IMG/VR virus record: IMGVR_UViG_3300011270_000003
Span: 1-51,669 of that record
Reading direction: 5' to 3' (one strand)
Source of the DNA: a virus
Taxonomy: Duplodnaviria; Caudoviricetes
DNA length: 51,669 bases
How positions within the stretch are numbered: position 1 is the stretch's first letter; the number at the start of each line of letters is the position of its first letter. Of the stretch, positions 7,756 to 51,669 are shown in pieces. The position numbers were made by a program, and so were the translations under genes. A model generated the notes under the pieces. That model saw only the letters and a program-made list of their open reading frames with translations, was not told where the DNA came from and did no database searches.

Positions 7756-9879
7756 TTATTTCAATTTACTTAACCTCTCTGCAGCTTCTCTAGCATTCTT
7801 AGTCATAGTTCTCATTTCATTTGGCCGTAACTGACTTTTATAATTTCGAACTGTTCCTACGCCTAATCCAAAATAATCTGCAATCTCTTCTACACTTTTT
7901 CCTGAGTCTAACATTTTAGTAAATTCTCCTTGACGACTACCAATAGAAGCCATAGCAGGAGAAGTATCTATTTTATTACCTTTCTCATCAAAGATAAGTT
8001 GATAAGATCTAGGTATATCTTCTGTCTTTGTAGCAAGAGATACACGTCTTTCTAACTCAGACATACCTGCTCTCTTCTGAGTATTTCTAGCTTCTACTTC
8101 CGATGCTAATTGTCTATATATTCTTTCTTTAGGAGATTCTGTAACTCCTTCCTTACGCATTCTAGCTGCGAATGCTTTTACAAATGATGCAGGAGCATCA
8201 GAAGGAACATTGAAAGCAAACCCTTCTTTGTTCTGAACCCAGTGTTGTAATTCATGAAGAATAGCGTCATGAACTTCTGTAGCATCTATAAGATTTTTAT
8301 TTAATTTAATAGTATTTTGACCACTCATAAATCTAGCTTCTGTAGTATCACTTACAAGATTTCTTTCAACTTTTATATTTTTAGCTTCTGGATATACTTT
8401 ATAAAATTCAGGATGATCTAATACATCGCCTAGTTTGGCTATATTCCAACTACTCTTATTTTTAAAAGCATTTAAATTTACAGAAGAAGGTAAATCACTA
8501 ACTTCTTGTCTAAGCATTCCTTCAGCACCATGTTCTACTCCAGTCAAAACTTTAACTTCTCCAGGAGATAAACCTTGTTTAAGAAGACCCTGAGCATATA
8601 ACTTCTTACCTAGAGAAGGAGCTACAAACATTCCTAAAGTATTAGGAATTGGACGAGCGGGAGTATTAAGCATTGAAGTAAAATCAAATAACTTAGGAGC
8701 TATTGTTTCAATCTCTTCATCTGTCAAAGCACCTTCATGACCTCTATCTGAGATCATTTTAAGAGCTCCCATTAAATTTTGAGCACCACGTAATAACGGT
8801 TCACCGATTGTTCTTACCGGAGATGTTCCAATAGCTTCACCAGCTCTTGTTGCCATTCCTTCCTGTCTACTACCACGATAATTACTTATATCTTTTCCAG
8901 TTCTTTCTGTATAACTCAGATGTCCTGTTACACCTGGTTTAACAGCTTCACGTTGACGTCTAGCTGCTTGTTCAAATGGATCAGACATAATAGTACTATC
9001 AGGTTCCATAGTCATCTTACGTACAGAACCTGGTTGGTCTGTATCTTCAAACAACTTAGATAGATCTAGACTAGGATTATCTTGTCCAGTCTTCTCCCAA
9101 CCTTCTAAAGAACTCTCGACCATATGGTGGGTAACTATACCTAACTTCTTATCTTTGTTAGCTAAGATCGCTTCTCTGATACCTTCGAATGCTCTGTCTT
9201 TAAATTGATTATATGATTCTCCACCAGGCACTACTTCATCTGGTTTCTTTTCTGCATAGTTCTGCAGAATATCATTATTACCTTCACAAGGTTTACCTTC
9301 GAAATTACCTACATTCCAAGTCTTTAATTTATCACTTATCGTGATAGGTATTCCAAGCTCTTTACCGATGATCTGGGATGTCTCTTTAGCTCTAGCTAGG
9401 GGAGATGATACCAGAGCCTCTAAACCTTTACCACGGAGCTCCTCAGCAGCTTCTAGGGCATGTTTACGGCCTTCGGCGCTTAACTTAACATCATCATTAG
9501 TTCCACGAATCTTGTCTTCTTCATTCTCTTCCGTAGTACCATGACGTATAATATGGATATCTTTAGGTTCTTCTAAATGTGTTTTATAACCTAGAACATT
9601 ACCTTTTTGTTTATCTGTAGCTCTTTGTAAAACATCAGACATCCCTTCTGCATAAAAAGGATATTCATTACGTCTATCTTCAACTTCACCCTGAAGATTA
9701 AAATCCAGACTTTCTTTATTTAATTTACCAGGTAAACCTGCATAATAATCATTTGGACTAATTTGGTAGACATCTGTCTTAGGATCATAATTAGGACTTT
9801 GAATTAATTTATGACTGTCTGCGACAGCTTCATATTCATTATCAAACCAACGACCATCACCGTAAGAAATACCCATCAT
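7756..9879 (-). CDS. Polyvalent protein: histidine phosphatase + LPD23-like zincin + C-terminal HTH
   Basis: IIRHG..SSPLARAKET..GGES..VTHH; LGDVLDHPEFYKVYP..ILHELQHWVQNKEGF..EVEARNTQKR; GKSVEEIADYFGLGVGTVRNY. Confidence 0.8.
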   Translation of the reverse strand: MMGISYGDGRWFDNEYEAVADSHKLIQSPNYDPKTDVYQISPNDYYAGLPGKLNKESLDFNLQGEVEDRRNEYPFYAEGMSDVLQRATDKQKGNVLGYKTHLEEPKDIHIIRHGTTEENEEDKIRGTNDDVKLSAEGRKHALEAAEELRGKGLEALVSSPLARAKETSQIIGKELGIPITISDKLKTWNVGNFEGKPCEGNNDILQNYAEKKPDEVVPGGESYNQFKDRAFEGIREAILANKDKKLGIVTHHMVESSLEGWEKTGQDNPSLDLSKLFEDTDQPGSVRKMTMEPDSTIMSDPFEQAARRQREAVKPGVTGHLSYTERTGKDISNYRGSRQEGMATRAGEAIGTSPVRTIGEPLLRGAQNLMGALKMISDRGHEGALTDEEIETIAPKLFDFTSMLNTPARPIPNTLGMFVAPSLGKKLYAQGLLKQGLSPGEVKVLTGVEHGAEGMLRQEVSDLPSSVNLNAFKNKSSWNIAKLGDVLDHPEFYKVYPEAKNIKVERNLVSDTTEARFMSGQNTIKLNKNLIDATEVHDAILHELQHWVQNKEGFAFNVPSDAPASFVKAFAARMRKEGVTESPKERIYRQLASEVEARNTQKRAGMSELERRVSLATKTEDIPRSYQLIFDEKGNKIDTSPAMASIGSRQGEFTKMLDSGKSVEEIADYFGLGVGTVRNYKSQLRPNEMRTMTKNAREAAERLSKLK

Positions 9880-21333: not shown

Positions 21334-21722
21334 TATGATTTAAATATCCTTGCTACAGATACTGCACCTGAATAGATGAAGTAGAATCCTACTACAGCCA
21401 TTAAGACTTGCCATTGATCTGGAGTGACAGGATCAGTAACTCCCATCTTTAATACTTTATCCCAAAGAAAGATCTTAGTAATGTAGGCAGCAGGACCTAC
21501 TGCTAGACCTGCTCTGACCCACATATCTAAACTACTATGTTGACTATCTGCCAACAGAGCAGCTCTTTTAGCTTCGAGAGTATTTATTCTTTCCTGAGCA
21601 GCAGTCTTATCTTCTTCAGTCTGAGCTTTAAGAAGAGCTATCTTCTCGTTAGCAATAGCATTAGTTACAGTGCTAATCGTAGTAAATAAGCCAGGAAGGA
21701 TTAAACCGAGTAAGCTCAACAT
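21333..21722 (-). CDS. Membrane protein of the lysis module (holin-like)
   Basis: Several hydrophobic segments ending VVGFYF; near the endolysin. Confidence 0.6.
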   Translation of the reverse strand: MLSLLGLILPGLFTTISTVTNAIANEKIALLKAQTEEDKTAAQERINTLEAKRAALLADSQHSSLDMWVRAGLAVGPAAYITKIFLWDKVLKMGVTDPVTPDQWQVLMAVVGFYFIYSGAVSVARIFKS

Positions 21723-21955
21723 TAGGTTGAAGCAGGAGCGGTAGTGACTGCTACCTTAGACAGAGATGACCATAAGCCGACAACTACGGCAGAAGCAGCA
21801 GTACCGATGCCACTGATTACAGCATCACCATTCCAATATTGCATTCCGTAATGAGCGACTAAGAAGCCACCTGCAGCAGCAATAGCAGCTCTAACCCAAC
21901 CACCAAGCTGAGTAGGACCTACTAGACTAGAGAGAACGTTAAGTACATTGTTCAT
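21722..21955 (-). CDS. Putative holin
   Basis: 77 aa with two TM segments (GWVRAAIAAAGGFLV; VVVGLWS). Confidence 0.7.
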   Translation of the reverse strand: MNNVLNVLSSLVGPTQLGGWVRAAIAAAGGFLVAHYGMQYWNGDAVISGIGTAASAVVVGLWSSLSKVAVTTAPAST

Positions 21956-22534
21956 TTATTTTCCTTTTCTAAATATTCTTGTTAGTATGCTAATAAAAGT
22001 ACTCCAGAAGCTCGTAGGAAGCTCACTGGTAGGTTTTTTAGAGGTGTCAGGTAGGGTAGTAGCCGGAGATAAGAAAAGCTTCTCCTCGGCCTTCCTACGT
22101 CGAATTAGACCTGCTAGAACTTTTCCACCTGCTTTGTTGTACAAAAGAAGATGATCCGCAGCTTCTGTATACTTACCTTTGTTAAGAAGAGTAAGAACAG
22201 AAGAGTGTCCTAAAGCTCCAGTATTAAAATGGAAAGAAACAAGAGCATCGAACTGATTTTGATTAAGAGGAACTTTAACAAGATTACTTACTTCTTGTTC
22301 GACTCGTCCGAGATCTTGTCCGAGGATTGCATCTGCCTCTTCTTTCGTAACTCGCATTCCCAGAAACACACTGGGAGGACCAGCAGCACTAGTATGCCCA
22401 ATACCGATAGTAAGAGTACCATGAACTGTATCTCCTATATCTACCACATGATCGTTATAATCATCGTACGATTGAAGAATTATACCTTCAAAAGGTTCAA
22501 TCAGATTTAGACGACCGTTTAGACTTGTCTTCAT
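21956..22534 (-). CDS. Endolysin, GH24 lysozyme
   Basis: FEG..TIGIGHT, LNQNQFDALVSFHFNTG, GLIRRRKAE; amphipathic C-terminal tail. Confidence 0.92.
   Translation of the reverse strand: MKTSLNGRLNLIEPFEGIILQSYDDYNDHVVDIGDTVHGTLTIGIGHTSAAGPPSVFLGMRVTKEEADAILGQDLGRVEQEVSNLVKVPLNQNQFDALVSFHFNTGALGHSSVLTLLNKGKYTEAADHLLLYNKAGGKVLAGLIRRRKAEEKLFLSPATTLPDTSKKPTSELPTSFWSTFISILTRIFRKGK
22013..22099 (-). repeat. Dispersed element, copy B (inside the endolysin 3' end)
   Basis: 18/18 identity to copy A at the 3' end and 13/13 in the core. Confidence 0.85.
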
Positions 22535-31477: not shown

Positions 31478-31619
31478 GCATACGCCTTGCTTGCGGCTTC
31501 TCTATGCTATTCCACCTAGTGCTTGCGGCTTTGACTGCTATTGCAGATCTATGCTTTCGGCTTAATTTAGCTGCTCTAGCATAACCTCCTATACTATGAA
31601 TGTTTTCTTGGTCTGCCAC
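31461..31619 (-). CDS. Small basic protein with a GGxARAAKLSxxxRSxIAxKAAxxRW motif (52 aa, GTG start)
   Basis: Manual translation; not in the ORF track. Confidence 0.65.
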   Translation of the reverse strand: MADQENIHSIGGYARAAKLSRKHRSAIAVKAASTRWNSIEKPQARRMHARGV

Positions 31620-33699
31620 CCATTTTCCCCATATCACTGAATGTTAATAATTTAGGTTTACTAGCTGCTTCTTGTCTCTTCCACCACTGAGCTACTTCTG
31701 CACTAACTTCTGCTTCAGTTATATATCTACCAGAAGATATAATTGCAGGAGGTGCAGGAGGTATTGGTAGATTAAGAACTAAAGCTTGAAACCATTGCTG
31801 ATCTATTGGTTTAAAAGTTCCAGGCAATGGCCAATCAGATTGATTGAACGGTTTAATCCCTACCGGAAGATAGATTACTAAATTCTGATTATGATCTCTA
31901 AACCAGTAAACTGGATAAGGATTTTTCCAATCTGTCTGAGAGAAGGGAAATGTATTGGATTGGAAGAAAGATAGAAGATTTTGTAACCATGTCTGATCGA
32001 TAGGTTTACTAACCACAGGAGTCGGAAAGTCCACATTCTGAAAGAATGGTGTCGGAAATGGTAACTGTACATTACCTGCTTCTGCCCAGAATTGTTGTAT
32101 TGGCTGATATGTTCTGGGTAAAGGCCAGTCCGTCTGAAAGAACGGAGGTGCCGTTGGCCCCATTAATATAGTTGGATTATAAATCCAAGTATATATCAAT
32201 CCAGGAAGTTGAGGTGGATTTCTCCAATCGAACTGTGCTTCAACAACTGTTGCAGTTAAAGTAGTTCCTAATAGATTTTGAATATTAGGATCTAAATACC
32301 AATACATAAATTTAGGATTGGGCCATTCAGTCTGAAAGAAAGGAACTCCTACAACAGGCTGAGCTGGACCTTGAGACCAGAAACGATCCCAGACTATTCG
32401 TTGTGGGTTGGGCCAATCATTCTGGACAAACGGGAAAGTTTCTGATTGATAAAATATGTTTAGACTTTGAGACCAAGTTTGTAATAGTGGCTGATAAGTC
32501 TTTGGTAATGACCAATCCGTCTGTTTAAAGGGTATTACTTGTTGAAAGCTTTGAGTCCAAGATTGATACCATATAACAGGAGAAGATAGAGGCCAATTAC
32601 TTTGTATAAATGGATTCTGAGTAATTGCAGTTAAAGAATTACCAGACCAAGTCCAAGTTTGATACCAAGTAAGATTCGGTATGTTATTCTGACTTAAATC
32701 TAAACCAAATGGTTGACCTTGAGGAGTCAGAGGTATTGGAAGACTGTTATTGCCTGTTTCCTGCCAAATATTAACATTGTAATATATTGGTGGAAATGCA
32801 TATGTATCTATCGGTCTAAACGGAGTAGGACGAGGTAATAAAACATTACCACGATCTTCTACACTTTGATACCAATAAGTTCTAGGAGGATTAGACCACG
32901 ATTGTTGAACACGTAAAGTCTGAGTTAATACTCTAGGAATAGGAAGAGTAGTTAATCCATTTTGTGTCCATTTCTGCCATTCTGAATAAGTAGTCCCTCT
33001 AGGAGGTAAATCAGATATGTTAGAAACAACTGGAGCAGTAGCTGCACCACTATTTGGTTTTAAAGCTAGAACATTAGCTATCCAACTATTAGTAGAACCA
33101 GAATTATTAACCCAAGTTCCTTGAATTGAGCCTGCTGAAGTTTGTGTTTGTTTCTCTGATCCTTCTGCTGAACTATTAGGATTAGGATTAAGACTATTAG
33201 TAAACCCACTACCAGCAGTAGCTGAACTACCAGCAGTAGAACAAGAATAAGCAGACCAAATAAGATCGCCATTGACGGTAGTTGTAATACCCGTACCAGC
33301 ATTAAAACTACCCGTATTAATTACATTAACTGTAGCTTTACCTTGATGCCCGTCTAATCCGGCTGATGGACCTCCTGTAGTACTCCATTCTTCTACCTGT
33401 ATAGCTCTGAATGATGTAGCAGGTGAATTATTTAGAGTAAATATCTTAGGACCATTAGTTATATTTACTGTAGCACAGACGGCTGCGGATTGTCCGCCTC
33501 CAGTTTCATCAGTATTATCTAAAACAGTATAGGTATTACCGCCAACATCATCTGTAATGCTAGGAGTAGATGTATCTCCCCAAGTAAAAGCAATTAATAC
33601 TGCATTACCCGATGTAACTGGATTAGTTAGTGTTGCAGTTAAAGTAGCTCCAGAAGCTGAATTTCCAGACCCAACGGATTGAACTAATGTCCATGTCAT
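31594..33699 (-). CDS. Putative virion protein: N-terminal beta domain plus PFxQxDWPxP repeats
   Basis: 701 aa; about nine Trp/Pro/Gln-rich repeats. Confidence 0.7.
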   Translation of the reverse strand: MTWTLVQSVGSGNSASGATLTATLTNPVTSGNAVLIAFTWGDTSTPSITDDVGGNTYTVLDNTDETGGGQSAAVCATVNITNGPKIFTLNNSPATSFRAIQVEEWSTTGGPSAGLDGHQGKATVNVINTGSFNAGTGITTTVNGDLIWSAYSCSTAGSSATAGSGFTNSLNPNPNSSAEGSEKQTQTSAGSIQGTWVNNSGSTNSWIANVLALKPNSGAATAPVVSNISDLPPRGTTYSEWQKWTQNGLTTLPIPRVLTQTLRVQQSWSNPPRTYWYQSVEDRGNVLLPRPTPFRPIDTYAFPPIYYNVNIWQETGNNSLPIPLTPQGQPFGLDLSQNNIPNLTWYQTWTWSGNSLTAITQNPFIQSNWPLSSPVIWYQSWTQSFQQVIPFKQTDWSLPKTYQPLLQTWSQSLNIFYQSETFPFVQNDWPNPQRIVWDRFWSQGPAQPVVGVPFFQTEWPNPKFMYWYLDPNIQNLLGTTLTATVVEAQFDWRNPPQLPGLIYTWIYNPTILMGPTAPPFFQTDWPLPRTYQPIQQFWAEAGNVQLPFPTPFFQNVDFPTPVVSKPIDQTWLQNLLSFFQSNTFPFSQTDWKNPYPVYWFRDHNQNLVIYLPVGIKPFNQSDWPLPGTFKPIDQQWFQALVLNLPIPPAPPAIISSGRYITEAEVSAEVAQWWKRQEAASKPKLLTFSDMGKMGGRPRKHS

Positions 33700-35840
33700 T
33701 ATTGATTTCCTGGAGGTATCGGAGAAAGACCAGCTATAATTTCAAATCTAGCTTTAGCAGGTAAAGTATATGTAGCTCCTGTTGAGGGATCAATCCAAGG
33801 CCATTGAGTATAGCCCCAAAATGCTGGTTTAGAAGTTAAATATAATGATGCAGGAATAGGAAACGGACGTGTATTATCATTAGGACCTGAACCACTTATA
33901 CCATGCCAGCGTTGTTGCTGTGTAAACCAATCCCAATTACCTTGACGTAATTGACCATTTTCTGTACCTGGAGTGAATACAACTCCACCGGCTGCTACTT
34001 GAGTTTTACCAAAACACCACATATTGACTTCATTACCTTGAAGACTAGTAAGTTGTTCATATTGAAAACTTGTTTGTGTCTCTCCTGAAGGAGGATCATT
34101 GAACAATACTTGGCCATTAAAACCGAGTACACAACCTACAACATTGTTGTATTTGCTAAACCCTTGAATATTAGCAGGATCACGGTCTCCAAAATCTTTA
34201 TAAGGAAAGACACCAGAAGTATAAGTACGAAGAGGACCTGCAGCAGCTCTAAGACCAGTCAACCAACATCTAAAGACAGTAATATAAATCTGATTACCCC
34301 AGTAAGTATCGCAATTATAGTTTTGTGTATAATTACCTTCAAATAATTCCATATGTCCTGTTGTCATATGGCCTGCATTCATACCAGCTTCACCAAGACT
34401 CGGATAATTAGATCCAAATGAATCATCCATATAACAATATGCTATAACGTTACCTCCGCCGGAGGCTCGCATAACAATCTGTTTATTTCCAAACCAATGG
34501 ATATTGTTCTCTAGAAGATTATCAGCAGAACCATTATCTATTGAGAAAAGATAACCACCACCGCCAGGATTTACATCTGGTGATTCATGCATAAAAGAAT
34601 CACGTACTTCACATCGATAAGAGTTAACAAAACGAACCGAAGGACCATTTGCCCAGCAAGAATCTATATTTTTAACCCAACAATAAGATGCTAATCCTAC
34701 TATAAGATTTCCTTGACCATTAAGACCACCCCATATAAATAAATCTTCAACACCTGTATTAGTAGCAAAACCACTATTAGCTAAGTCCCAAGGTGTAAAT
34801 TGAGCAAGATATTGAGTACCATATGTAACATGGAATGGTGTTTTGAATGTAACTGTATTACCGACGACTGATTGAACTTCCATTACTTGACTTAAGGAAC
34901 GGTCAAGACGACAGAAGTAGCTTCTTGTGCCACCTGGAGTATTAGGAGCATTGTTATTTGGTCCCCAATATACATCTGGATGTTGGGGACAACCCACAGC
35001 CGAGGTATTAATATCTATTAAAGCAAGATCTCCAGGACTTACGCTAGGTGCACTAGCTAATGTACATGAAAATGCATCTTTTACGGCATCAGTAGTTAAG
35101 TTTATAGATGTTCCAAGTTGACTGGGATCACCGCCTAAACTCAGAATACCGAATTGGTTACCAAATGTATCTGCACGATCTGCTTTAACAAGTTGAGTAG
35201 CAGCAACATCTACTGCGTAAGAACCGGCTAAGCCTGATTGAAGAGTAGTATTAACTCCATTAATGCCGAAGTTTGCTGTTCCTGAACCTGGACCAGATCC
35301 TCTTAGAGTAATATTGGATACTCTCATACGAAGACCACCAACTGAAATACGGAAGACACCTGTATTTAATTTGACTACTTGATCAGATGTACAAGTATTA
35401 ATAGCATTTTGTATTACTGCTGTATCATCCAATCCTATACTTTGAGTACCTGATTGAGTTCCTGAAGTATTAACAGATGTTCCACTAGAAGAACCACTAC
35501 CATTATCAGCACAGAACTGGAATGAACTTCCTGATAGACCTGTAACAGAGACATAATAGTTAGTATTTTTACTAATTCCTGTTGGTAAAGCACCTGTTGT
35601 CTGGAAAGTGAATCTTTCACCACCAACAAAGGTATTAGTCATATGGACTAAACCAGGGGTTGCAATATCAATGGTGACAGTGGTCCCCGCTGCTGGAGAC
35701 AACGGAGACAGTGTTGTAAAAATAGTATTTCTAGTCGGAATACCTCCGTTGTAAGTTACACCTGGTTTCCATATAATTCTTCTATCAGATGGTATTATAG
35801 GTGGATTAGACGGAGCATATCTGAAAGTACTGGTGGGCAC
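33699..35840 (-). CDS. Pectate-lyase-like beta-helix protein (putative depolymerase or spike)
   Basis: DDTAVIQNAIN..VVKLNTGVFRIS..SNITLRGSG entry motif; NLLENNI and GNVIAY Asn-ladder repeats. Confidence 0.75.
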   Translation of the reverse strand: MPTSTFRYAPSNPPIIPSDRRIIWKPGVTYNGGIPTRNTIFTTLSPLSPAAGTTVTIDIATPGLVHMTNTFVGGERFTFQTTGALPTGISKNTNYYVSVTGLSGSSFQFCADNGSGSSSGTSVNTSGTQSGTQSIGLDDTAVIQNAINTCTSDQVVKLNTGVFRISVGGLRMRVSNITLRGSGPGSGTANFGINGVNTTLQSGLAGSYAVDVAATQLVKADRADTFGNQFGILSLGGDPSQLGTSINLTTDAVKDAFSCTLASAPSVSPGDLALIDINTSAVGCPQHPDVYWGPNNNAPNTPGGTRSYFCRLDRSLSQVMEVQSVVGNTVTFKTPFHVTYGTQYLAQFTPWDLANSGFATNTGVEDLFIWGGLNGQGNLIVGLASYCWVKNIDSCWANGPSVRFVNSYRCEVRDSFMHESPDVNPGGGGYLFSIDNGSADNLLENNIHWFGNKQIVMRASGGGNVIAYCYMDDSFGSNYPSLGEAGMNAGHMTTGHMELFEGNYTQNYNCDTYWGNQIYITVFRCWLTGLRAAAGPLRTYTSGVFPYKDFGDRDPANIQGFSKYNNVVGCVLGFNGQVLFNDPPSGETQTSFQYEQLTSLQGNEVNMWCFGKTQVAAGGVVFTPGTENGQLRQGNWDWFTQQQRWHGISGSGPNDNTRPFPIPASLYLTSKPAFWGYTQWPWIDPSTGATYTLPAKARFEIIAGLSPIPPGNQ

Positions 35841-42017: not shown

Positions 42018-42186
42018 TTAGAATAACCTAACAGGTTATATAGGATAACCTACGGCTGATGATCTAAGACCCCCTTCAGTTAGTAGGTTATTGGCTGTAC
42101 GGGCCGCCATAAGGAGAGATCAGAGCTACTCTGGATGCTGCCTCTGTGCGTACTCTCCACCTGTACTTACAAACACGGAGAATGTC

Positions 42187-42609
42187 ATGTCTTGGAAAGA
42201 TAATCTATCTGAGGTATCTTATTGGATATTTCTTACTCTAGCTGTAGCTCTAATATTTTCTATTACATATTCGTGTGCCGGAGCTTCTACATGTTGGTCT
42301 GATCCACATTCAGCAACAGATAAATATACGCGTAGGAACCCCAACCATGTGGGTGAAATGTGTTGGCACCCTACCTACCAGAAGAATAAAATAACTTACC
42401 AGCGAGCTTCCTACGGGCATGGCGAGCCCACCTACAAGCAGTCCTCCAATGCTGCTCTTACGATCTTAGCCAAACCTGTATTAAGACCAGCTACGATGAA
42501 AGCAATCAATGACTTTCTATTGATGCAAGGACTACAGAATGATCCAATGTTGAAAGACTATCTAATCAGAAAGATGCTTGAGATCCAACAGAGGAACATA
42601 GAACCATGA
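42187..42609 (+). CDS. Early membrane-anchored protein (contains a copy of the 86-bp element)
   Basis: ACGGAG RBS; N-terminal TM segment. Confidence 0.7.
   Translation: MSWKDNLSEVSYWIFLTLAVALIFSITYSCAGASTCWSDPHSATDKYTRRNPNHVGEMCWHPTYQKNKITYQRASYGHGEPTYKQSSNAALTILAKPVLRPATMKAINDFLLMQGLQNDPMLKDYLIRKMLEIQQRNIEP
42331..42415 (+). repeat. Dispersed element, copy C (inside an early CDS)
   Basis: CGTAGGAAC...GGCACCCTACCTACC...TAAAATAACTTACCAGCGAGCTTCCTACG. Confidence 0.8.
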
Positions 42610-44422: not shown

Positions 44423-44499
44423 GCCCATATAGGCCAATCGGTAGAGTCAGGGGACTTAAAATCCCCACAGTGTCAGTTCGAGTCTGACTATGGGCACCA
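44423..44499 (+). tRNA. tRNA-Leu(UAA) with a short variable loop and encoded CCA
   Basis: Acceptor GCCCATA/TATGGGC, anticodon arm GGGGA-CTTAAAA-TCCCC, T arm GTCAG-TTCGAGT-CTGAC, ACCA end. Confidence 0.92.
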
Positions 44500-44623: not shown

Positions 44624-45004
44624 ATGCGTGAAGAATACGGACTAATAGTAGCCTTCGGCATGTTAGCTATACTTGTCTACTATATGATTAGAAACATTGT
44701 ATCTTATTATCAATTCATTCCTTACTTTTACAGGAAGAGACTTAAGAGGAAATATAATATGACCCCGGAAAGAGATAAAGAATTAGAGACTATCGTAGCT
44801 GATCTATTCCTCGAACAGGTAGATAAGACTTACCTAGAAGGGAAGATAACCAACGACGAACGATACTATCTATATGAAAAGTATGCTAAGGTGTGGTCTA
44901 TCGATGACCTTATACCACGTACAAAAGATAAACCTCCCTGGGATGAGGTATCTGTTCCTGAAGAACCAAAGAGAAAGTCTCTACAGGAACTATTCAACCA
45001 ATAA
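44624..45004 (+). CDS. Membrane-anchored hypothetical protein
   Basis: ACGGAG RBS before the ATG at 44624; N-terminal TM. Confidence 0.7.
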   Translation: MREEYGLIVAFGMLAILVYYMIRNIVSYYQFIPYFYRKRLKRKYNMTPERDKELETIVADLFLEQVDKTYLEGKITNDERYYLYEKYAKVWSIDDLIPRTKDKPPWDEVSVPEEPKRKSLQELFNQ

Positions 45005-45077
45005 TGACAGGTCTTACAACGCTCGCTCGCAAGAGTTCGCGAACAACGTCTCGTTAACACTCGACACGGAGAATACC

Positions 45078-46505
45078 ATGGCTACGGATTTACACAGAGG
45101 TTCACTTTTAGTCAAAGAGGCTACTTGGATCATACCAGAGGCTATGATGAAGATCCAAGTAGAGAAAAATAAAGGTGGTGCTGGAGCCATCATACATACT
45201 GGAACTGAACTTCAACTGGTCAGTTCTGATCATCTTACTATCGATAAGTGGATGAACCTTCAGAGCCAACTAAAGGATCAGAAGGCTATTTTCTATCTGT
45301 CTAATATCACCAACACTATTCCAGAGGAAGATAAACAGCCCATTGTGTTGTTAGCGGATACTGAGAATAATCCTCTTATTGTAGGCGTATTAGAAGGAGA
45401 ATTCCCTTCTTCTAATGATAGTTCTGCTCACACTCCTGAGTATAGAGCAGCACAGAAACTCATGCTCCGGTTCAAGAAAACATACAAACTCTTAGAAGGA
45501 GATATGACTAAAGTATGGGAAGATCTTAAGGATCCTTCCACTCACGAAGAGATTGTCTCGGGTCTTATTGGGCATCGTGGTGCTATTGGCTTGTTCCTTT
45601 CTACAGGTAATGCTATTTCCTTTGACAAAGATAATGGTTTAGGCGGTGATTTTAGATGGGGTTATGCTTCAAATGCATTCGGTTATACCGAACAGAATGA
45701 AGCAATGACCGACGGTATTAGAACTACTCCTAGAAATTTAGAAGCTAAGAATAAGTTAGCAGCTATTCTTGGGCATACTACTTCTATAACTCCACCTAAA
45801 GTAGAAGAAAAGGTGGAGAATGAGGAGTTTGAGTTAGTAGAACCTGGAGTTAATATCCAAGGTAAGAACAGTCTCAGAAACTTTTACGATAAGTTAGTCA
45901 GAGAAGGTAGAATTGCTGCTATTCCTGCTAACTTCAAAGATAGACCGAAGGTCCGAGCTAAGAAGATTGAAGGTAAACAGACAGCTAAGACTTTCGAAGA
46001 TGCTGCGAGGATGCTTCAAGATAAGAAACCTGTCGGACCTTCATCTCCTATCTCTAGCGCTACTGATACCAAAACAGAAGGAGAGACCTTACTCAAAGAT
46101 TCTCCGACAATCATCCCGACCATAGACGCAGAACAACGTCAAGACTTCTTGGATAACTTCATGAAAACCATCGATGTCAACAATCTAGAAATCATGGATA
46201 CACAGCAAGTAGCTGACTTCGAGAAAGACTGGCCTAGTCTGTCTCAACAGACGGGTATTCCTGAAGAGTTAGCTAATGGTCTGAGGATGACATTTGCAAA
46301 GAAGTGTGATCTTGCAGATACATATCCTAAGATTGCTGCTGTCGGTTGGCAGAACTTAGTTAATCACCATATTCGTTTATTAGCAGCCTACAACAAGGCT
46401 ACAGCAGATCTTAAAGCTGCTGAGGAATTACTTACTAAACCTGCTGATAAGGCTACTACTTCTGTTCCTGCTACAGGAGGAACTAAGAAGTTCGGTATTA
46501 AGTAG
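45078..46505 (+). CDS. Hypothetical protein; N-terminal half may be a degenerate class II glutamine amidotransferase fold
   Basis: ACGGAG RBS; spacing of NKGGAG..DKQPI..VLEG..TPEY echoes NxDGxG..HPF..HNG..DSE, but the catalytic residues are absent. Confidence 0.6.
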   Translation: MATDLHRGSLLVKEATWIIPEAMMKIQVEKNKGGAGAIIHTGTELQLVSSDHLTIDKWMNLQSQLKDQKAIFYLSNITNTIPEEDKQPIVLLADTENNPLIVGVLEGEFPSSNDSSAHTPEYRAAQKLMLRFKKTYKLLEGDMTKVWEDLKDPSTHEEIVSGLIGHRGAIGLFLSTGNAISFDKDNGLGGDFRWGYASNAFGYTEQNEAMTDGIRTTPRNLEAKNKLAAILGHTTSITPPKVEEKVENEEFELVEPGVNIQGKNSLRNFYDKLVREGRIAAIPANFKDRPKVRAKKIEGKQTAKTFEDAARMLQDKKPVGPSSPISSATDTKTEGETLLKDSPTIIPTIDAEQRQDFLDNFMKTIDVNNLEIMDTQQVADFEKDWPSLSQQTGIPEELANGLRMTFAKKCDLADTYPKIAAVGWQNLVNHHIRLLAAYNKATADLKAAEELLTKPADKATTSVPATGGTKKFGIK

Positions 46506-46733
46506 GCTTGAGGGCCGTTACCTGTGTAACCAATGCAGTGCAGACACAGGTCTGGGTAACCAGATTATAGAGCTGCATTTCAAATCAGGTCTACTTATAG
46601 GAGAGTGGTAGCCGTCTATCACTACCACTCTCCGGCTACTTATAAGCGGACACTATAGGGACCGAGGTCAGGCAATTACAGACCAAGGGTAACACTTTGC
46701 CTTATAGTGTCCACCTATAAGCAGGAGTCTAAT

Positions 46734-47453
46734 ATGTTAGAAATGTTCAAGCCGAAACAGACAACTATTCAAACATTGGACATGAGATCTCCTGCTGAGA
46801 TTAACTGGCATAAGTTAGGAGCTAAGCCATCATCTGCATGGTGGAAACTTGCAGAAAGAGAATGGCGAATTGAAGGCATGTATTGTACTCCTGACATCAG
46901 TACAATTGAAGATAACATGTATAATCTTCTATTCGTATGTGATGCTTTAATACAAGGAGAAAAGAAATTTAAACAGATAGAAGACAACTGCATCTTAGTA
47001 GCTAATTGTTTTACAGTTAACAACTTCGAATTCTGGTCTAAGGATTTAGGGACTGAAACGTTCCCCATTCCTTTAGAAACAGACAAGAAAGCTGTATTCG
47101 AAGAATGGGCTGATCTTAATACTAGTAGGTTAGCTCAACCTGCTAAGATCAAAGGACAATTATTAGCAGTCAGAGGAAATACTTTAATTTCTCTTGACAA
47201 AGACTATTCAAATACTATAATATATGAACGTAAGAAAGTACATATACACATACCTAATAGACAAATACATTATCTGGACAATGGTCACACAGATATTAAG
47301 ATGTGTGACATGGGTATGTGGGTATGGATGTATGTTGGAATACCTGCCTATTGGTCTGATATAATTGACATTGGATTTAGGTGTAAACCTGTCACGATTT
47401 ATAAGTCAAAAGCAATGATGAAGGAGCCATATTATTACTTCCCGACTAGTTGA
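46734..47453 (+). CDS. Gamma-glutamylcyclotransferase-like protein (degenerate)
   Basis: LLFVCDALIQG (compare LFVYGTLxxG), IKGQLLAV, LISLD, YERKKV, WMYV. Confidence 0.6.
   Translation: MLEMFKPKQTTIQTLDMRSPAEINWHKLGAKPSSAWWKLAEREWRIEGMYCTPDISTIEDNMYNLLFVCDALIQGEKKFKQIEDNCILVANCFTVNNFEFWSKDLGTETFPIPLETDKKAVFEEWADLNTSRLAQPAKIKGQLLAVRGNTLISLDKDYSNTIIYERKKVHIHIPNRQIHYLDNGHTDIKMCDMGMWVWMYVGIPAYWSDIIDIGFRCKPVTIYKSKAMMKEPYYYFPTS
47194..47221 (+). promoter_or_regulatory. Internal sigma70 promoter upstream of primase
   Basis: Perfect TTGACA-16 nt-TATAAT inside a CDS. Confidence 0.75.
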
Positions 47454-49005
47454 AGTTCACATTCCATGTGAAGTCTGTGGTAGTTCTGATGCTAAGTCTA
47501 CCTTTGATGATGGACATGGGTTTTGTTTTTCATGTAATCATTATTTTCCGCCATTAACCTCTCCTTCAACCAAGGAGTTTACCTATGAATATTGTCCATG
47601 GCGTGGCGTCAATGCGGAAACTTTCCGCTTCTATGACGTCAAAACTAAGATCGATTCCGACGGTAAGCCGGTCTCGATTGGCTATCGCTATCCGAACGGT
47701 AGCTACAAAGTTAGACAGCTTGGCAGCAAAGATTTCTCCAGCCTAGGAGAGATTAGCAAAGCAGGTCTATTCGGATCAGATAAGTTCAACGCTGGTCAAC
47801 ATAAATATGTGACCATCACCGAAGGAGAACAAGATGCGTGTTCCCTTTACCAAGTACTACATCAACCTGTGGTTTCTATCCAGTCTGCTGTTACTAGCGT
47901 ACGTGATTGCACAGCATGTAGATCCTGGCTTAGTAGCTTCGATCGAATCTACCTCTGTTTCGACAGCGATGCAGTGGGGCGAGAAGCTACAGCAGCAGTT
48001 TCTAAGCTTTTCGACTATGGCAAAGTCTTTGATGTAAAACTAACATCAAGGAAAGATGCCAATGAATACCTTCAGAATGGTGAAGGTGAAGTACTCAGGA
48101 ACACATGGTTTAATTCCCGCAAATACTTGCCCGAGACCATAGTCTCTTCCTTCGACGACTTCAAAACTATTCTGAAAGGTAAAGTACGACACGGTATCCC
48201 CTATCCGTTCCCTACCTTAACCGAAAAGACGTATGGAATACGAACAGGGGAAATCGTTCTAATCACTGCTCCTGAAGGAGTAGGTAAGACTGAATTAATG
48301 TACAACCTCGAACATCATTTGTTAAAGGTAACAGATGATAACATAGGATGTATTCTCCATGAAGAAAGCCCTAGAAGGCACCTCCAAGCTATTGCTGGAC
48401 TTGAGCTCCAAAGACCCGCGCACCTTCCCGACAGCGGTCTCGAAGAAGATGAAATCTTTTCTGCTGTCTCCAAGGTTATTCGCATGGATGAGCGGTTGTA
48501 CCTTCATTCTAGCTTTGGGGGCGACTCTGCAGAGACACTCTGCGACACTATTAGGTTTCTCGTTTCTGCCTGTGGCTGTCGTTTTATTCTTTTCGGTAAC
48601 ATTTGCATGGCCATTCCTCTCTTGGCGGGAGAGAATGAAAGACAAGCTCTCGACCAAATCTCTACCAGATTAGAGATGATGGTCAAGGAATTAGATTTTG
48701 GATTAATAGTAGTAAGCCATGTCAATGATTTTGGACAAACAAGAAGCAGTAGGGCCATTGGGAAAGTATCCGATATTAGGATCGATCTTTCTCGCGATGT
48801 TACACAAGGAAGCAGAGAAACTTACATCACAGTCTCTAAAAATAGGTACTGCGGTAAAACAGGATCAGCAGGCATACTTACGTTTGATCCTGGAACATAT
48901 ACTCTATCAGAATTAAAAGCTGATAACGATAATGAAGTTCAGACGTCATCACAACAACAAAGGTCTTCGCCAGATAAGACGTGGGAAGACATACGAGCAG
49001 CTTAA
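47434..49005 (+). CDS. T7 gp4-like primase-helicase (ATT start)
   Basis: Zinc ribbon HIPCEVCGSSDA..GFCFSC, TOPRIM TEGEQDA..CFDSD..KDANEYL, Walker A APEGVGKT, VVSH and KNRYCG; frame open from 47422. Confidence 0.93.
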   Translation: MTSRLVEVHIPCEVCGSSDAKSTFDDGHGFCFSCNHYFPPLTSPSTKEFTYEYCPWRGVNAETFRFYDVKTKIDSDGKPVSIGYRYPNGSYKVRQLGSKDFSSLGEISKAGLFGSDKFNAGQHKYVTITEGEQDACSLYQVLHQPVVSIQSAVTSVRDCTACRSWLSSFDRIYLCFDSDAVGREATAAVSKLFDYGKVFDVKLTSRKDANEYLQNGEGEVLRNTWFNSRKYLPETIVSSFDDFKTILKGKVRHGIPYPFPTLTEKTYGIRTGEIVLITAPEGVGKTELMYNLEHHLLKVTDDNIGCILHEESPRRHLQAIAGLELQRPAHLPDSGLEEDEIFSAVSKVIRMDERLYLHSSFGGDSAETLCDTIRFLVSACGCRFILFGNICMAIPLLAGENERQALDQISTRLEMMVKELDFGLIVVSHVNDFGQTRSSRAIGKVSDIRIDLSRDVTQGSRETYITVSKNRYCGKTGSAGILTFDPGTYTLSELKADNDNEVQTSSQQQRSSPDKTWEDIRAA

Positions 49006-49032
49006 ACATATTATTAGAAGGTTGAGGGGGAA

Positions 49033-49746
49033 ATGAATGAAATAGACACTTGGGAAGATTTAGATTTCTGGAGATCAAAGGAGTGGGAAGATGTTCAGAC
49101 CAGATTGGATAGACTTGATATGGAACGTACATTCTATTGCCCAGGACGTTCTAATCTGTTTGCAAGCTTGGATCTTACTCCGTTTGAGCAAGTCAAAGTA
49201 GCAATCATAGGTCAAGATCCTTATCCTAATCCTCAATATTCCACAGGACTAGCCTTTAGTACTCCTAAGGATTGTATAAATAGGAAGGAATATCCGTTCC
49301 CTCCTACATTAGTTAATATTTTCAAAGAGTTACATAACGATCTTCACTATGAATATTTTGATAAAGAAGGAAAGAAATCTATCTTTCCTAAGTCTGGTAA
49401 TCTAGAGCCATGGGTTGAACAGGGAGTCTTACTGTGGAACGCGATACCGACGTGTCTACAATTCTTATCACTCTCACATCTTCACTGGCAGGAATGGCGG
49501 TCTCTTACGATAGAGGTAATCACTCGCCTGAACAGAAAAGGCATCTGCTTCGTACTATGCGGAGGTATAGCAAGAGAATTGACAGAGTTTGTGAACGAGG
49601 ATTACTCAGACTTGATAGAAGTAAGTCATCCTAGTCCTAGAGGTTTCTGTTCTGGAGAACATCCATTCTCTGGAAGTAGAGTCTTTAGTAGAGTTAATGC
49701 ATTTTTAGCTAAAGATAAGTTAGATCCTATAGATTGGAAACTATAG
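49033..49746 (+). CDS. ung: Uracil-DNA glycosylase, family 1
   Basis: VKVAIIGQDPY, GLAFS, PPTLVNIFKEL, QGVLLWN, SHPSP, PFSGS..FS, IDW. Confidence 0.9.
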   Translation: MNEIDTWEDLDFWRSKEWEDVQTRLDRLDMERTFYCPGRSNLFASLDLTPFEQVKVAIIGQDPYPNPQYSTGLAFSTPKDCINRKEYPFPPTLVNIFKELHNDLHYEYFDKEGKKSIFPKSGNLEPWVEQGVLLWNAIPTCLQFLSLSHLHWQEWRSLTIEVITRLNRKGICFVLCGGIARELTEFVNEDYSDLIEVSHPSPRGFCSGEHPFSGSRVFSRVNAFLAKDKLDPIDWKL

Positions 49747-49748
49747 CT

Positions 49749-49834
49749 CGTAGGAAGGTCCGTAGTAAGTTTTATACATTTTGGCTACTACCCTAGCGGG
49801 GTATATAAAATAATTCACCAGTGAGCTTCCTACG
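49749..49834 (+). repeat. Dispersed 86-bp element with terminal inverted repeats (copy A, intergenic)
   Basis: CGTAGGAAG...GGCTACTACCCTA...ACCAGTGAGCTTCCTACG; homologous to 22013-22099 (-) and 42331-42415 (+). Confidence 0.85.
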
Positions 49835-49852
49835 CAGTCCTGGAGGCATTCT

Positions 49853-50149
49853 ATGAGATGTCCTACACTAATATGGTTAGGTGTTCCTAACCTTGGAGTT
49901 CTTAAATATGAAATAGATATAAATAAAGATGGAGATTGTGAAGCTCTAGATAAGAATATAGCTGATGGATGTTATTTATTAAGATTTGAAGTTTCAACTA
50001 AAGTAAATGTAAATACTTTATGGAAATTATTTCAATCTGGTATTAAGTATAGAATTCTAAGAATAGATCAAGAACTTGATGGTTTAATTTATTACTTAGT
50101 ACAAAGAAATACGGAGGAAGAAGAAACATATGTCTATGACCACTACTGA
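49853..50149 (+). CDS. Hypothetical protein
   Basis: GGAGG RBS. Confidence 0.7.
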   Translation: MRCPTLIWLGVPNLGVLKYEIDINKDGDCEALDKNIADGCYLLRFEVSTKVNVNTLWKLFQSGIKYRILRIDQELDGLIYYLVQRNTEEEETYVYDHY

Positions 50150-50477
50150 AGATGAAAGACTAGATAAGGAAGAGGAAGTACGTAAGAGACGTAAGTCTTT
50201 AAAAGTAGTCATAGGAGGTAAAGAACCACCTGATAATGGAGAACCTAAAGTAGAAGATTGGTTGACCCCTATGAAGAGATTTACTATATTCTTAGCCTCT
50301 TCACCTAAGTTAGGTCTTGACTTATTAGAGTATCATGTTATAGTTAAGACTAAGAAATCAATTAAAGTAGCTGTCAACGAAGGACAAATAATACGTTGGG
50401 TAGACCCTAAGAAGTTCTGCAGAGATTTTGTTCTCCATGAAATTATCCAAATACCAGTAGAGGAGAAAGATGAGTAA
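50130..50477 (+). CDS. Hypothetical protein
   Basis: GGAGG RBS. Confidence 0.75.
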   Translation: MSMTTTEDERLDKEEEVRKRRKSLKVVIGGKEPPDNGEPKVEDWLTPMKRFTIFLASSPKLGLDLLEYHVIVKTKKSIKVAVNEGQIIRWVDPKKFCRDFVLHEIIQIPVEEKDE

Positions 50478-50640
50478 CGTTATTGGACCTATTAATTCAA
50501 ATGATTGGTATACTATGCGACAATTACTTAGTGATGTTAAATGGATGAAGAACAGAGATTCTAATAAGTTTAAGTCTGCAATAGACAAGGAGAGTAATTA
50601 TTATAATAAATTAAAATCTCAATATGCAATTAATAATTGA
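50470..50640 (+). CDS. Small hypothetical protein (56 aa)
   Basis: GAGGAG RBS; overlaps the polymerase start. Confidence 0.65.
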   Translation: MSNVIGPINSNDWYTMRQLLSDVKWMKNRDSNKFKSAIDKESNYYNKLKSQYAINN

Positions 50641-51669
50641 TATTGAAGCAGATAAATTAGAAAATCCTACTAAGATATGGTGTGTCGTTCTAAAAGACAT
50701 AGCTACGGGGGAATATTATGTATTTAGAAATCTCCACGAAGATCAAACAGAAGTGGAGAAGTTTAAAGATTTGGTTAAAAAGTGTAAAAGATTGGTCGGT
50801 CACAACATTCTTGGTTATGATTACCCTGTCTTGTGTAATCTTATTCAGTTTTATGATTGCATTAATGTTACCGATATTATTGATACCTTTATTATTTCTA
50901 AGTTATGTAACTATTCGCGCAAGGGACATGGAATAGAAGATTACGGTCTTGAATTTAACTTACCTAAAGGAGAATTCAATGATTGGTCTAGACTTACTGA
51001 AGAAATGGTTACGTATTGTATTAGAGACGTCGATATCTGTGAGCGTATTTACCTTAGCTATCTTAGTGACATCGATAATCCTAAGTATAGGAATGCTATT
51101 ACTTGTGAACACAAGTTCCAAATCATTGCTAATTCTCTTCACGATAATGGGTTCTATTTTGATATTAAAAAGTGTAATAAACTACTTGAGAAAGTAACTT
51201 TAGAATTAAAGAATTTAGATGAAGATATACTTAAATCCTTTCCTCCTCATCTCACTTTAATTAGAGAGATTAATCCAGAGTTGACCAAACATGGGACTCT
51301 TCATAGAAAAGACTTCCGCTGGGTACAGAGTAACGATCTTTCGGAATACAATGGGGGATCTTTTTGTAGATGTATCTACCAAGAGTTCAATCCATCCTCA
51401 CATAGACAAATTGTGGATGTTCTTTCTAAGGCTGGCTGGAGACCAAGCGACAAAACCAAGACACACGTTGAAGCCAACAGACAAGGAATAGTTAGAGAAG
51501 ATCTTAGTAAATATGGGTGGAAGATCAATGAAGCGAATATCTCTTCACTTCCCAGTAGTGCTCCACAATCAGCTAGAACTCTGGCCAAGAGGATACTATT
51601 CGAAGCTAGACGTAGGACGCTCACCGAGTGGATTAAACTTTATGATCCCAATACCGGAAGAATTCACGG
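50624..51669 (+). CDS. polA: Family A DNA polymerase, N-terminal 3'-5' exonuclease half (wraps to 1093)
   Basis: Manual translation: IIDIEAD (Exo I), GHNILGYD (Exo II), YCIRDV (Exo III), FNPSSHRQI; missed by the ORF track because it runs off the window end. Confidence 0.93.
   Translation, partial: MQLIIDIEADKLENPTKIWCVVLKDIATGEYYVFRNLHEDQTEVEKFKDLVKKCKRLVGHNILGYDYPVLCNLIQFYDCINVTDIIDTFIISKLCNYSRKGHGIEDYGLEFNLPKGEFNDWSRLTEEMVTYCIRDVDICERIYLSYLSDIDNPKYRNAITCEHKFQIIANSLHDNGFYFDIKKCNKLLEKVTLELKNLDEDILKSFPPHLTLIREINPELTKHGTLHRKDFRWVQSNDLSEYNGGSFCRCIYQEFNPSSHRQIVDVLSKAGWRPSDKTKTHVEANRQGIVREDLSKYGWKINEANISSLPSSAPQSARTLAKRILFEARRRTLTEWIKLYDPNTGRIH

Follow-up and report, generated by a model that had tools for sequence, protein, structure and literature searches.

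What is the short sequence that stands between two rightward genes near one end of a phage record, and why does it recur twice within reading frames of the same genome? A first-pass annotation had described it as a dispersed element of 85-87 bp with inverted-repeat ends, and had proposed several functions for it, including a symmetric DNA-wrapping site, a small structured RNA and a MITE-like element. The window, meaning the whole stretch of DNA that was analyzed, is a complete IMG/VR virus record of 51,669 bp. Our analysis indicates that the element is an undescribed, direction-specific cis signal of a large group of uncultured soil phages. We tentatively favor the view that it is an expression cassette of the promoter or leader type, located at gene junctions and read by a protein, that also serves as a recombination junction. 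No description of the element was found in Rfam or in literature searches by exact string and by topic; the topic searches led to papers on the PeSL cassettes of T4-type phages and to general surveys of MITEs. The exact-string literature matches that were listed are eukaryote studies, mostly human, and apparently represent primers.

The 123-bp "direct terminal repeat" of the record (positions 1-123 and 51547-51669) represents an exact overlap of its ends. The DNA polymerase gene crosses the record ends (50624-51667 with 2-1093). The map is therefore circular, and the assembly is circularly closed. In Pfam and PHROG scans of the window ORFs, the gene set is that of a T7-like podovirus without a recognizable RNA polymerase. 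It includes genes for primase/helicase, a family A polymerase, a gp2.5-like SSB, portal, large terminase, major head protein, internal virion protein, and lysozyme. Rightward genes occupy the map from approximately 40.9 kb across the record ends up to 7.6 kb, and leftward genes lie from 40.4 to 7.8 kb. A perfect 12/12 sigma-70 consensus (TTGACA-16-TATAAT) is located at the head of the leftward gene block (40460-40433, minus strand). A second perfect 12/12 site (47194-47221, plus strand) lies within ORF 46707-47453, upstream of primase/helicase. The named phage collection, when searched with window positions 49000-51000, gave no match.

Several other features of this genome can be recorded here. 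At the end of the virion gene block, a 707-aa protein (7756-9879, minus strand) has a histidine-phosphatase domain (PF00300, E 3e-32) and, near residue 545, an HELQH motif of the HExxH type. A tRNA gene is found in the early region (44423-44496, plus strand; Rfam RF00005, 56.5 bits), and 35 nt of it are matched by contigs of another organism (runs X1-X3). Three large ORFs (701, 713, and 543 aa; 31594-35840, minus strand, and 44874-46505, plus strand) have no Pfam, PHROG, or PDB sequence match, and for the 543-aa ORF the Atlas has a low-confidence model.

All three copies of the element are present at the positions and on the strands originally assigned to them (Table 1). The 18-mer ACCAGYGAGCTTCCTACG, which is common to the three, occurs 3 times in the window versus 0.06 expected; none of 100 shuffles reaches 3, and the number of occurrences is still 3 when up to 3 mismatches are allowed. 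The 8-mer arm CGTAGGAA occurs 8 times versus 0.89 expected, and 6 of these 8 are the arms of the three copies. Arms are 9-10 nt long in copies A and C, 8 nt in copy B, and about 19 nt in a related locus (L107). The GGCtaC block begins 34-35 nt into the copies, and all three copies are co-oriented with the local genes, both as the first-pass annotation had reported. Two of its other claims hold in part. The arms are indeed inverted repeats, but similarity extends approximately 19 nt beyond the 3' arm, so the unit does not end at the inverted repeats. Similarly, two copies do lie inside open frames, but both occupy the last part of their frame, 58-81 nt before the next start. Taken over all three window copies, the distance from the end of the element to a start codon is about 18-81 nt.

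Table 1. Positions of the three copies, the parts of copy A, and the adjacent genes in the window
Feature	Position	Strand	Description
Copy A	49749-49834	+	Intergenic, 86 nt; starts 2 nt past the stop of ORF 49033-49746
Copy A, 5' arm CGTAGGAAGG	49749-49758	+	
Copy A, variable part	49759-49782	+	
Copy A, GGCTAC-TACCC-TAGC boxes	49783-49797	+	
Copy A, A-rich box	about 49803-49814	+	
Copy A, core (TC)ACCAGTGAGCTTCCTACG	49815-49834	+	
Copy A, leader CAGTCCTGGAGGCATTCT	49835-49855	+	GGAGG ribosome-binding site, then ATG of ORF 49853-50149
Copy B	42331-42415	+	85 nt, within ORF 42091-42609
Copy C	22013-22099	-	87 nt, 3' end of lysozyme ORF 21956-22534; encodes RRKAEEKLFLSPATTLPDTSKKPTSELPT
77-aa hydrophobic protein gene	21722-21955	-	Start 58 nt downstream of copy C
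UDG-superfamily gene	49033-49746	+	PF03167, phrog_12143; precedes copy A
98-aa ORF	49853-50149	+	Directly behind copy A
115-aa ORF (p115)	50130-50477	+	Function unassigned; homologues behind element

Exact-word scans for the 18-mer returned 16 viral, 75 metagenome, and 11 genome loci, and a second viral scan, anchored on the A-rich box plus core, returned 38 loci. Because each scan of a collection is expected to produce tens of random matches (a rough estimate), a locus was counted as a member only if it also has the A-rich box, immediately 5' of the core, or the upstream boxes. By this rule 39 of 74 rows are members, two of which (L056 and L129) resemble coding chance matches. In L078, L094, L106, L118, L119, L127, and L128, the 18-mer is a chance coding match (PTSELPT) within related aldolase-like bacterial genes. 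The idea that the 18-mer might represent an attB site or a tRNA fragment was rejected: in one genome per species for 185,579 species, it occurs only 11 times, mostly in what look like chance or coding matches. Given this rarity and the apparent chance nature of most genome matches, the 18-mer is not a conserved host gene.

Across the family, the conserved unit is the 3' half of the element. It comprises moderately conserved G-TAC/TA-C columns, the A-rich box, and a near-invariant core, AAC-N-CACCAGYGAGC. The spacing of these parts is fixed, and 62 sequences align gap-free across 58 columns. The best-kept columns of this alignment are A38-A40, A42, A43, C44, and C46, followed by ACCAGYGAGC. Farther upstream, the kept columns are G14 (49/62), T16, A17, C18, T24, A25, and C27 (54/62). 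Central 4-nt units are CTAC in part of the family and, within identical columns, its complement GTAG in other members. The 5' arm is an optional part of the element. In 12 of 75 distinct sequences, the 3' end of the element is matched by its reverse complement 85-88 nt upstream of that end, and TAGGAAG (with at most one mismatch) is located 65-68 nt before ACCAG in 20 of 80 sequences. An inverted copy of the A-rich box plus core takes the place of the arm in L134, L136, and L057, and an inverted core duplicate is seen in L134, L136, G018, and G024. In phages that share the portal gene with the window, a leader of constant length (about 30 nt) runs to ...GGCATTCTA and a ribosome-binding site or ATG. 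This fixed-length leader into the ribosome-binding site of the next gene is a property of the A-type copies.

The first-pass annotation had recommended that a profile be built and scanned against related genomes, and had held that absence from related phages, together with a lack of effect of recoding, would refute its proposal. The element is found in the relatives, so it is not refuted in this way, and such a profile has matches in 22 of 23 virus records. The sequence-only model R1 (58 columns) gives 1-4 matches per record at E up to 1. It finds three matches in the window, including copy A at 49772-49828 (E 1.1e-11), four in G002, three in G003, one or two in most records, and none at this threshold in G001. 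A portal 57-99% identical to that of the window is encoded by 13 of the 30 carrier records; of the 12 records with a completeness of 90% or higher, 9 encode it.

Carriers comprise podophages of approximately 50 kb as well as unrelated, higher-GC phage and mobile-element contigs, and their GC content is about 28-64%. When six higher-GC carriers (G011, G015, G016, G019, G026, and G027; 54-64% GC) were compared with the window proteins (tblastn, E 0.01), nothing was common to them except for the lysozyme of G011 and two very short matches. High-GC metagenome members adjoin integrase genes (L093 and L069), an IS21 IstB gene (L068), or an HTH gene (L102). One alphaproteobacterial MAG has a repeat of approximately 250 nt on two large contigs (L120 and L123), which includes the 18-mer and a terminator-like hairpin. 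A separate observation concerns L122, a 50,792-bp contig from genome_contigs whose element sequence is the same as that of the 50.8-kb record G001. This contig is binned in a Rhabdochlamydiaceae MAG, which is possibly a hint to the host and possibly a binning artefact.

In the portal-sharing phages, the element is usually located at the copy A site. Searches with tblastn place a UDG-like gene upstream of the element in 22 loci and p115 homologues downstream in 24 loci, at identities down to 34-37%; among the downstream ORFs, the largest cluster numbers 17. A homologue search with p115 found 8 close relatives and no Pfam family. The order primase/helicase, UDG-like gene, sometimes a small ORF, element, p115-like gene, and DNA polymerase is present in G010, G013, and G022. 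G014 has the first four of primase/helicase, UDG-like gene, element, p115-like gene, and DNA polymerase in that order. By manual count, 15 of the 19 matches in portal-sharing relatives are clearly co-oriented with the next gene, and four are ambiguous (G009, G012, G017, and G021). The single copy in G012 and in G017 lies several hundred nucleotides upstream of two small genes and terminase, and the ORF tables of these two records list no clear co-oriented ORF immediately downstream of the element. In two high-GC records, the element adjoins an exonuclease gene (G016) or a primase gene (G026).

The sequence directly behind the element varies. Copies A, B, and C are present at matching places in G002 and G003, and copy C also in G004. 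At the A site, homology between the window and G002 or G003 stops just after ...GGCATTCTA and resumes at the p115 start. The 98-aa ORF (about 290 nt) is missing there in G002, G003, and a relative from run X5, and the content of the slot behind the leader thus varies. The contig of the run X5 relative joins position 49853 to position 50144 via 28 other letters. L090 has a homologue of the 98-aa ORF (68% protein identity), L110 has a different ORF of 58 codons in the slot, and L099 and L016 have other sequence. On the other side of the element, G003 has about 170 extra nucleotides just 5' of it. G004 has no scoring copy at the A site; the preceding ORF has a degenerate core (17/21 by hand count) within its 3' end, 26-47 nt ahead of the ATG of the p115 homologue.

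Copies inside genes make it possible to compare selection on nucleotides with selection on protein. Copy C corresponds to codons 146-174 of the 192-residue lysozyme and is present in all seven lysozyme orthologs, namely, those of G002, G003, G004, and four metagenome loci. In these orthologs, the 3' 55 nt of copy C are 89-98% identical to the window (49-54/55), versus 65-83% for the catalytic domain. Third codon positions agree with the window at 16-19 of 19 sites in copy C versus 49-71% in the lysozyme domain. The 58 nt that follow copy C are 53-62% identical to the window across orthologs, and 100% in G003. The 3' part of copy C thus outlasts the lysozyme domain, third codon positions included, and the earlier proposal of a function at the nucleic-acid level is supported. 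The Pfam Phage_lysozyme match covers residues 15-150, and the arm of copy C (CGT AGG AAG) encodes R146, R147, and K148. This arm consists of lysozyme-domain codons and is therefore native coding sequence, not an inserted end. A peculiarity of G003 is recorded separately: a 1-nt insertion in its copy C (L038, G003:C1:14292-14515) causes a frameshift and an early end of the lysozyme (...ATTPTWHL), which thereby lacks the C-terminal hydrophobic tail that is present in the window, G002, and G004.

The frame that contains copy B has 172 codons. An in-frame ATG (MKAINDF...) 81 nt past copy B is the start of a separate small gene in L053, where a stop codon splits the two frames. A comparison of the window with G003 shows differences at 15 of the 50 codons counted from the element start (12 non-synonymous and 3 synonymous) and identity at codons 20-30, which correspond to the A-rich box and core. 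The core of copy B has decayed in G002. The pattern of codon changes and the stop codon in L053 show a frame that is open and unlike a constrained protein. Inside genes, therefore, the element is under nucleotide-level selection.

In the cassette that we propose, the working part would be an array of boxes in double-stranded DNA, at fixed spacing. A protein would read this array and thereby start or re-start expression of the downstream gene; we infer both a transcription start at the element and the nature of this reader. The element would then be an internal promoter-type signal plus a 5' leader, which may overlap the 3' end of the upstream frame, as in copies B and C. In members that have a 5' arm, the arm and the 3' end of the core are complementary, so a hairpin could form in read-through RNA or in unwound DNA, and perhaps this hairpin insulates or tunes the junction. 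Recombination may also use the cassette: as a block of identical sequence it would act as a junction, which would account for the variable small genes directly behind it. In favor of the cassette are the position and direction of the copies, the recurrent site among the replication genes, the fixed geometry without a shared RNA fold, the nucleotide-level selection inside genes, and the breaks in homology at the junction.

The searches made for a reader did not find one. Six-frame searches with PF00940 (T7-type RNA polymerase) matched 0 of 1 and 0 of 21 records; the control genomes gave no match either, so this negative result is weak. RNA polymerase motif patterns revealed nothing relevant, and PDB sequence searches of four large unassigned ORFs for a phage RNA polymerase, like the Atlas model of the 543-aa ORF, were negative or uninformative. 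No sigma factor was found in the Pfam or PHROG scans of the window ORFs. Sigma-70 was rejected as the reader for the family because the hexamer before AAC begins with TA, CG, TG, or AG and no -10 element is kept; a fit is found only in copy B (TTGGCA-18-TAAAAT, 10/12). Sigma-54 was also rejected, as a GG/GC pair at -24/-12 spacing occurs in only 11 of 62 sequences. These results argue against a promoter-type cassette, as does the terminator-like U-run in several high-GC members. Also, with 1-4 copies per record, the element is too infrequent to be a general phage promoter.

Some resemblances to known signals were seen. In its commonest form among the relatives, the A-rich box plus core agrees with the promoter consensus of T7 class III at 13 of 23 positions without gaps, which serves as a lead only. 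An 8-mer in relatives, absent from the copies in the window itself, may resemble the operator loop of T4 gene 43. Further possible resemblances are to XerCD dif arms, RfaH ops, lambda boxA, and the 340 region of 16S rRNA.

The alternative that survives best, although we judge it unlikely, is that the element acts as RNA. It might be an intercistronic element that couples or gates translation of the next gene, or else an RNase III-type processing site or a terminator. The arm UAGGAAGG is Shine-Dalgarno-like and would pair with the 3' end of the core (CUUCCUA), which is anti-Shine-Dalgarno-like; the alternative partner would be the downstream ribosome-binding site, and in copy A, GCUUCC can indeed pair with GGAGGC of that site. 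Complementarity between arm and core recurs in the lysozyme codons, in the copy B ORF, at intergenic sites, and in the high-GC loci L136, L134, and L057, whose arms are 15-17 nt long. Two-sided changes can be seen by eye, as in CGTAGG/CCTACG versus TCTAGG/CCTAGA (L151) and in GCGAGC/GCTCGC versus GTGAGC/GCTTAC (L059 and L092). The flanks of A-type copies, as read, place the upstream stop codon about 2-8 nt before the arm. Several high-GC members have a hairpin and a U-run after the core, and in these the A-rich box is able to pair with the U-run in a terminator-like arrangement. The recurrent arm complementarity points to some role for a hairpin.

However, the expected signs of a conserved RNA fold are lacking. 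Single-sequence folds close the arms, but the z-scores of the three copies are modest, and the sense strand (-2.5, -1.0, and -1.5) does no better than the antisense strand (-3.9, -2.0, and -0.8). RNAalifold, applied to 32 ungapped sequences of 98 columns, predicts no consensus pair on either strand. The arms pair with differing parts of the core in different members, and most members have no arm. Local hairpins occur, some with two-sided changes, and their register varies between members. A small hairpin (TACCC-N4-5-GGGTA, or TAGGG...CCCTA in L019) precedes the A-rich box in some members and is absent in copies B and C. The Rfam gathering scan of the window finds the tRNA alone and nothing at the element, and E-value scans of 51 loci (20, 17, and 14) gave no Rfam match at the element. 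A hammerhead ribozyme was considered, given the sequence CTGATGA in some relatives, and the Rfam scans showed nothing of the kind. The idea of a small structured RNA in the first-pass annotation is thus not upheld. Moreover, the swap of CTAC and GTAG within identical columns argues against an RNA, because these units are one motif in duplex DNA and different sequences in RNA. The fixed spacing, the lack of a shared fold, and the strand-symmetric central units together indicate recognition of duplex DNA. We therefore rank the DNA reading first and retain both.

A related possibility, which we also consider unlikely, is that conserved host machinery, and not any phage protein, recognizes the box array. 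The element might then represent a new promoter class, or a site at which RNA polymerase is modified, as in processive antitermination or pausing. Such a reading would explain why a core of approximately 20 nt is kept in carriers that are unrelated in their proteins and that range from approximately 28% to 64% GC. As tblastn finds no protein common to the window and the six higher-GC carriers, apart from the G011 lysozyme and the two very short matches, a common phage-encoded reader is unlikely and a host partner is likelier.

It is improbable that the element is an origin of replication or a loading site for a primosome or helicase. Such a site could use the A-rich box for unwinding, together with the short repeated units and the inverted arms. 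The commonest location, between primase/helicase and DNA polymerase, is consistent with this function, as are the exonuclease and primase neighbors in unrelated high-GC records (G016 and G026) and the usual number of one or two copies per record. The inverted core duplicate of L134, L136, G018, and G024 would suit loading in two directions. However, an origin would not explain the tight, constant spacing to the ribosome-binding site of the next gene, the retention of copy C in a late-region lysozyme gene of eight phages, or the position upstream of terminase genes in G012 and G017. Also, the carriers have no initiator protein in common.

We assign an equally small chance to a MITE-like mobile element, or a horizontally spread cassette with its own regulatory signal. 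The inverted arms, the dispersed copies in unrelated phages, the contigs with integrase or IS21 IstB genes, the two copies of approximately 250 nt in a single alphaproteobacterial MAG, and the insertions or replacements at element borders all resemble mobility. But no target-site duplication is evident by eye at the four flank pairs compared, which read CT/CA, CG/GG, and GA/AG for the three window copies and CA/CA for G003. Nor was a clean empty site seen, as G004 keeps its degenerate core at the A site. Conservation differs between the two arms, and phages whose portals are only 57-75% identical have the element at the same sites. In high-GC members, the variable positions are GC-rich and the boxes are kept, which we read as long residence rather than recent transfer. 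Pfam and PHROG scans of the window ORFs found no transposase. With only 1-4 copies per record and an arm of copy C that consists of lysozyme codons, the MITE interpretation offered earlier is not sustained.

A strong gyrase site or other symmetric DNA-wrapping site, proposed in the same annotation, is very improbable, for only the size of roughly 85 bp and the inverted arms suggest it, whereas the element is asymmetric, direction-specific, and tied to gene starts, with conservation across the family limited to the 3' half and the arm optional.

The proposed cassette can be compared with several known systems. Promoters of T7-group single-subunit RNA polymerases have approximately 20 conserved base pairs, with an A/T-rich 5' part and a CAC-containing center. 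The element resembles them in having such a block, behind which come a short leader and then a ribosome-binding site, in a phage whose replication and virion genes are T7-like. It differs in that the polymerase gene was not found, the copies are too few, and the main operons start at perfect sigma-70 sites. T7 RNase III processing sites are dispersed, related, irregular hairpins located between genes along the direction of transcription. Unlike these, the element keeps its primary sequence and not a helix, and it has no consensus structure. MITEs and palindromic repeats, such as Correia elements, Rickettsia palindromic elements, and the MITEs reported in viral genomes, have inverted arms, are approximately 100 bp long, and in some cases lie in reading frames. 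In contrast to them, no target duplication or clean empty site was seen for the element, and its arms are unequal, one of them being lysozyme coding sequence.

The closest parallel may be the PeSL (promoter-early stem-loop) sequences of T4-type phages. As described in two papers (PMC2839356, PMC4122927), PeSLs are small, composite, intergenic cassettes that are repeated within a genome and oriented with transcription. Each consists of a stem-loop, an A/T-rich stretch, and an expression signal, and they lie beside variable small genes, where they act as points of exchange. PeSLs also include exact matches to the sigma-70 consensus and a terminator stem of the form GGGG...CCCC, and a genome has many of them. 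Measured against that description, the element is likewise composite and oriented with genes, and it behaves as an exchange junction at the A site, where at least three different sequences follow the leader. It differs in that its family has no sigma-70 fit, there are 1-4 copies per record, copies may lie in coding sequence, and its carriers are unrelated.

If the element is an expression signal, it would define a small regulon, with 1-4 units in each genome, for soil podophages of approximately 50 kb that form a large, uncultured group. It would then offer a handle on how these phages, without a polymerase of their own, time their replication and lysis genes. A core that is kept across carriers of diverse base composition without a detectable common protein is unusual for a phage regulatory site. 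This conservation points to a conserved host partner, for which the element could be used as bait. In metagenomes, this phage group can also be readily recognized by the element. Finally, it represents a case of a regulatory signal that is under strong selection within coding sequence.
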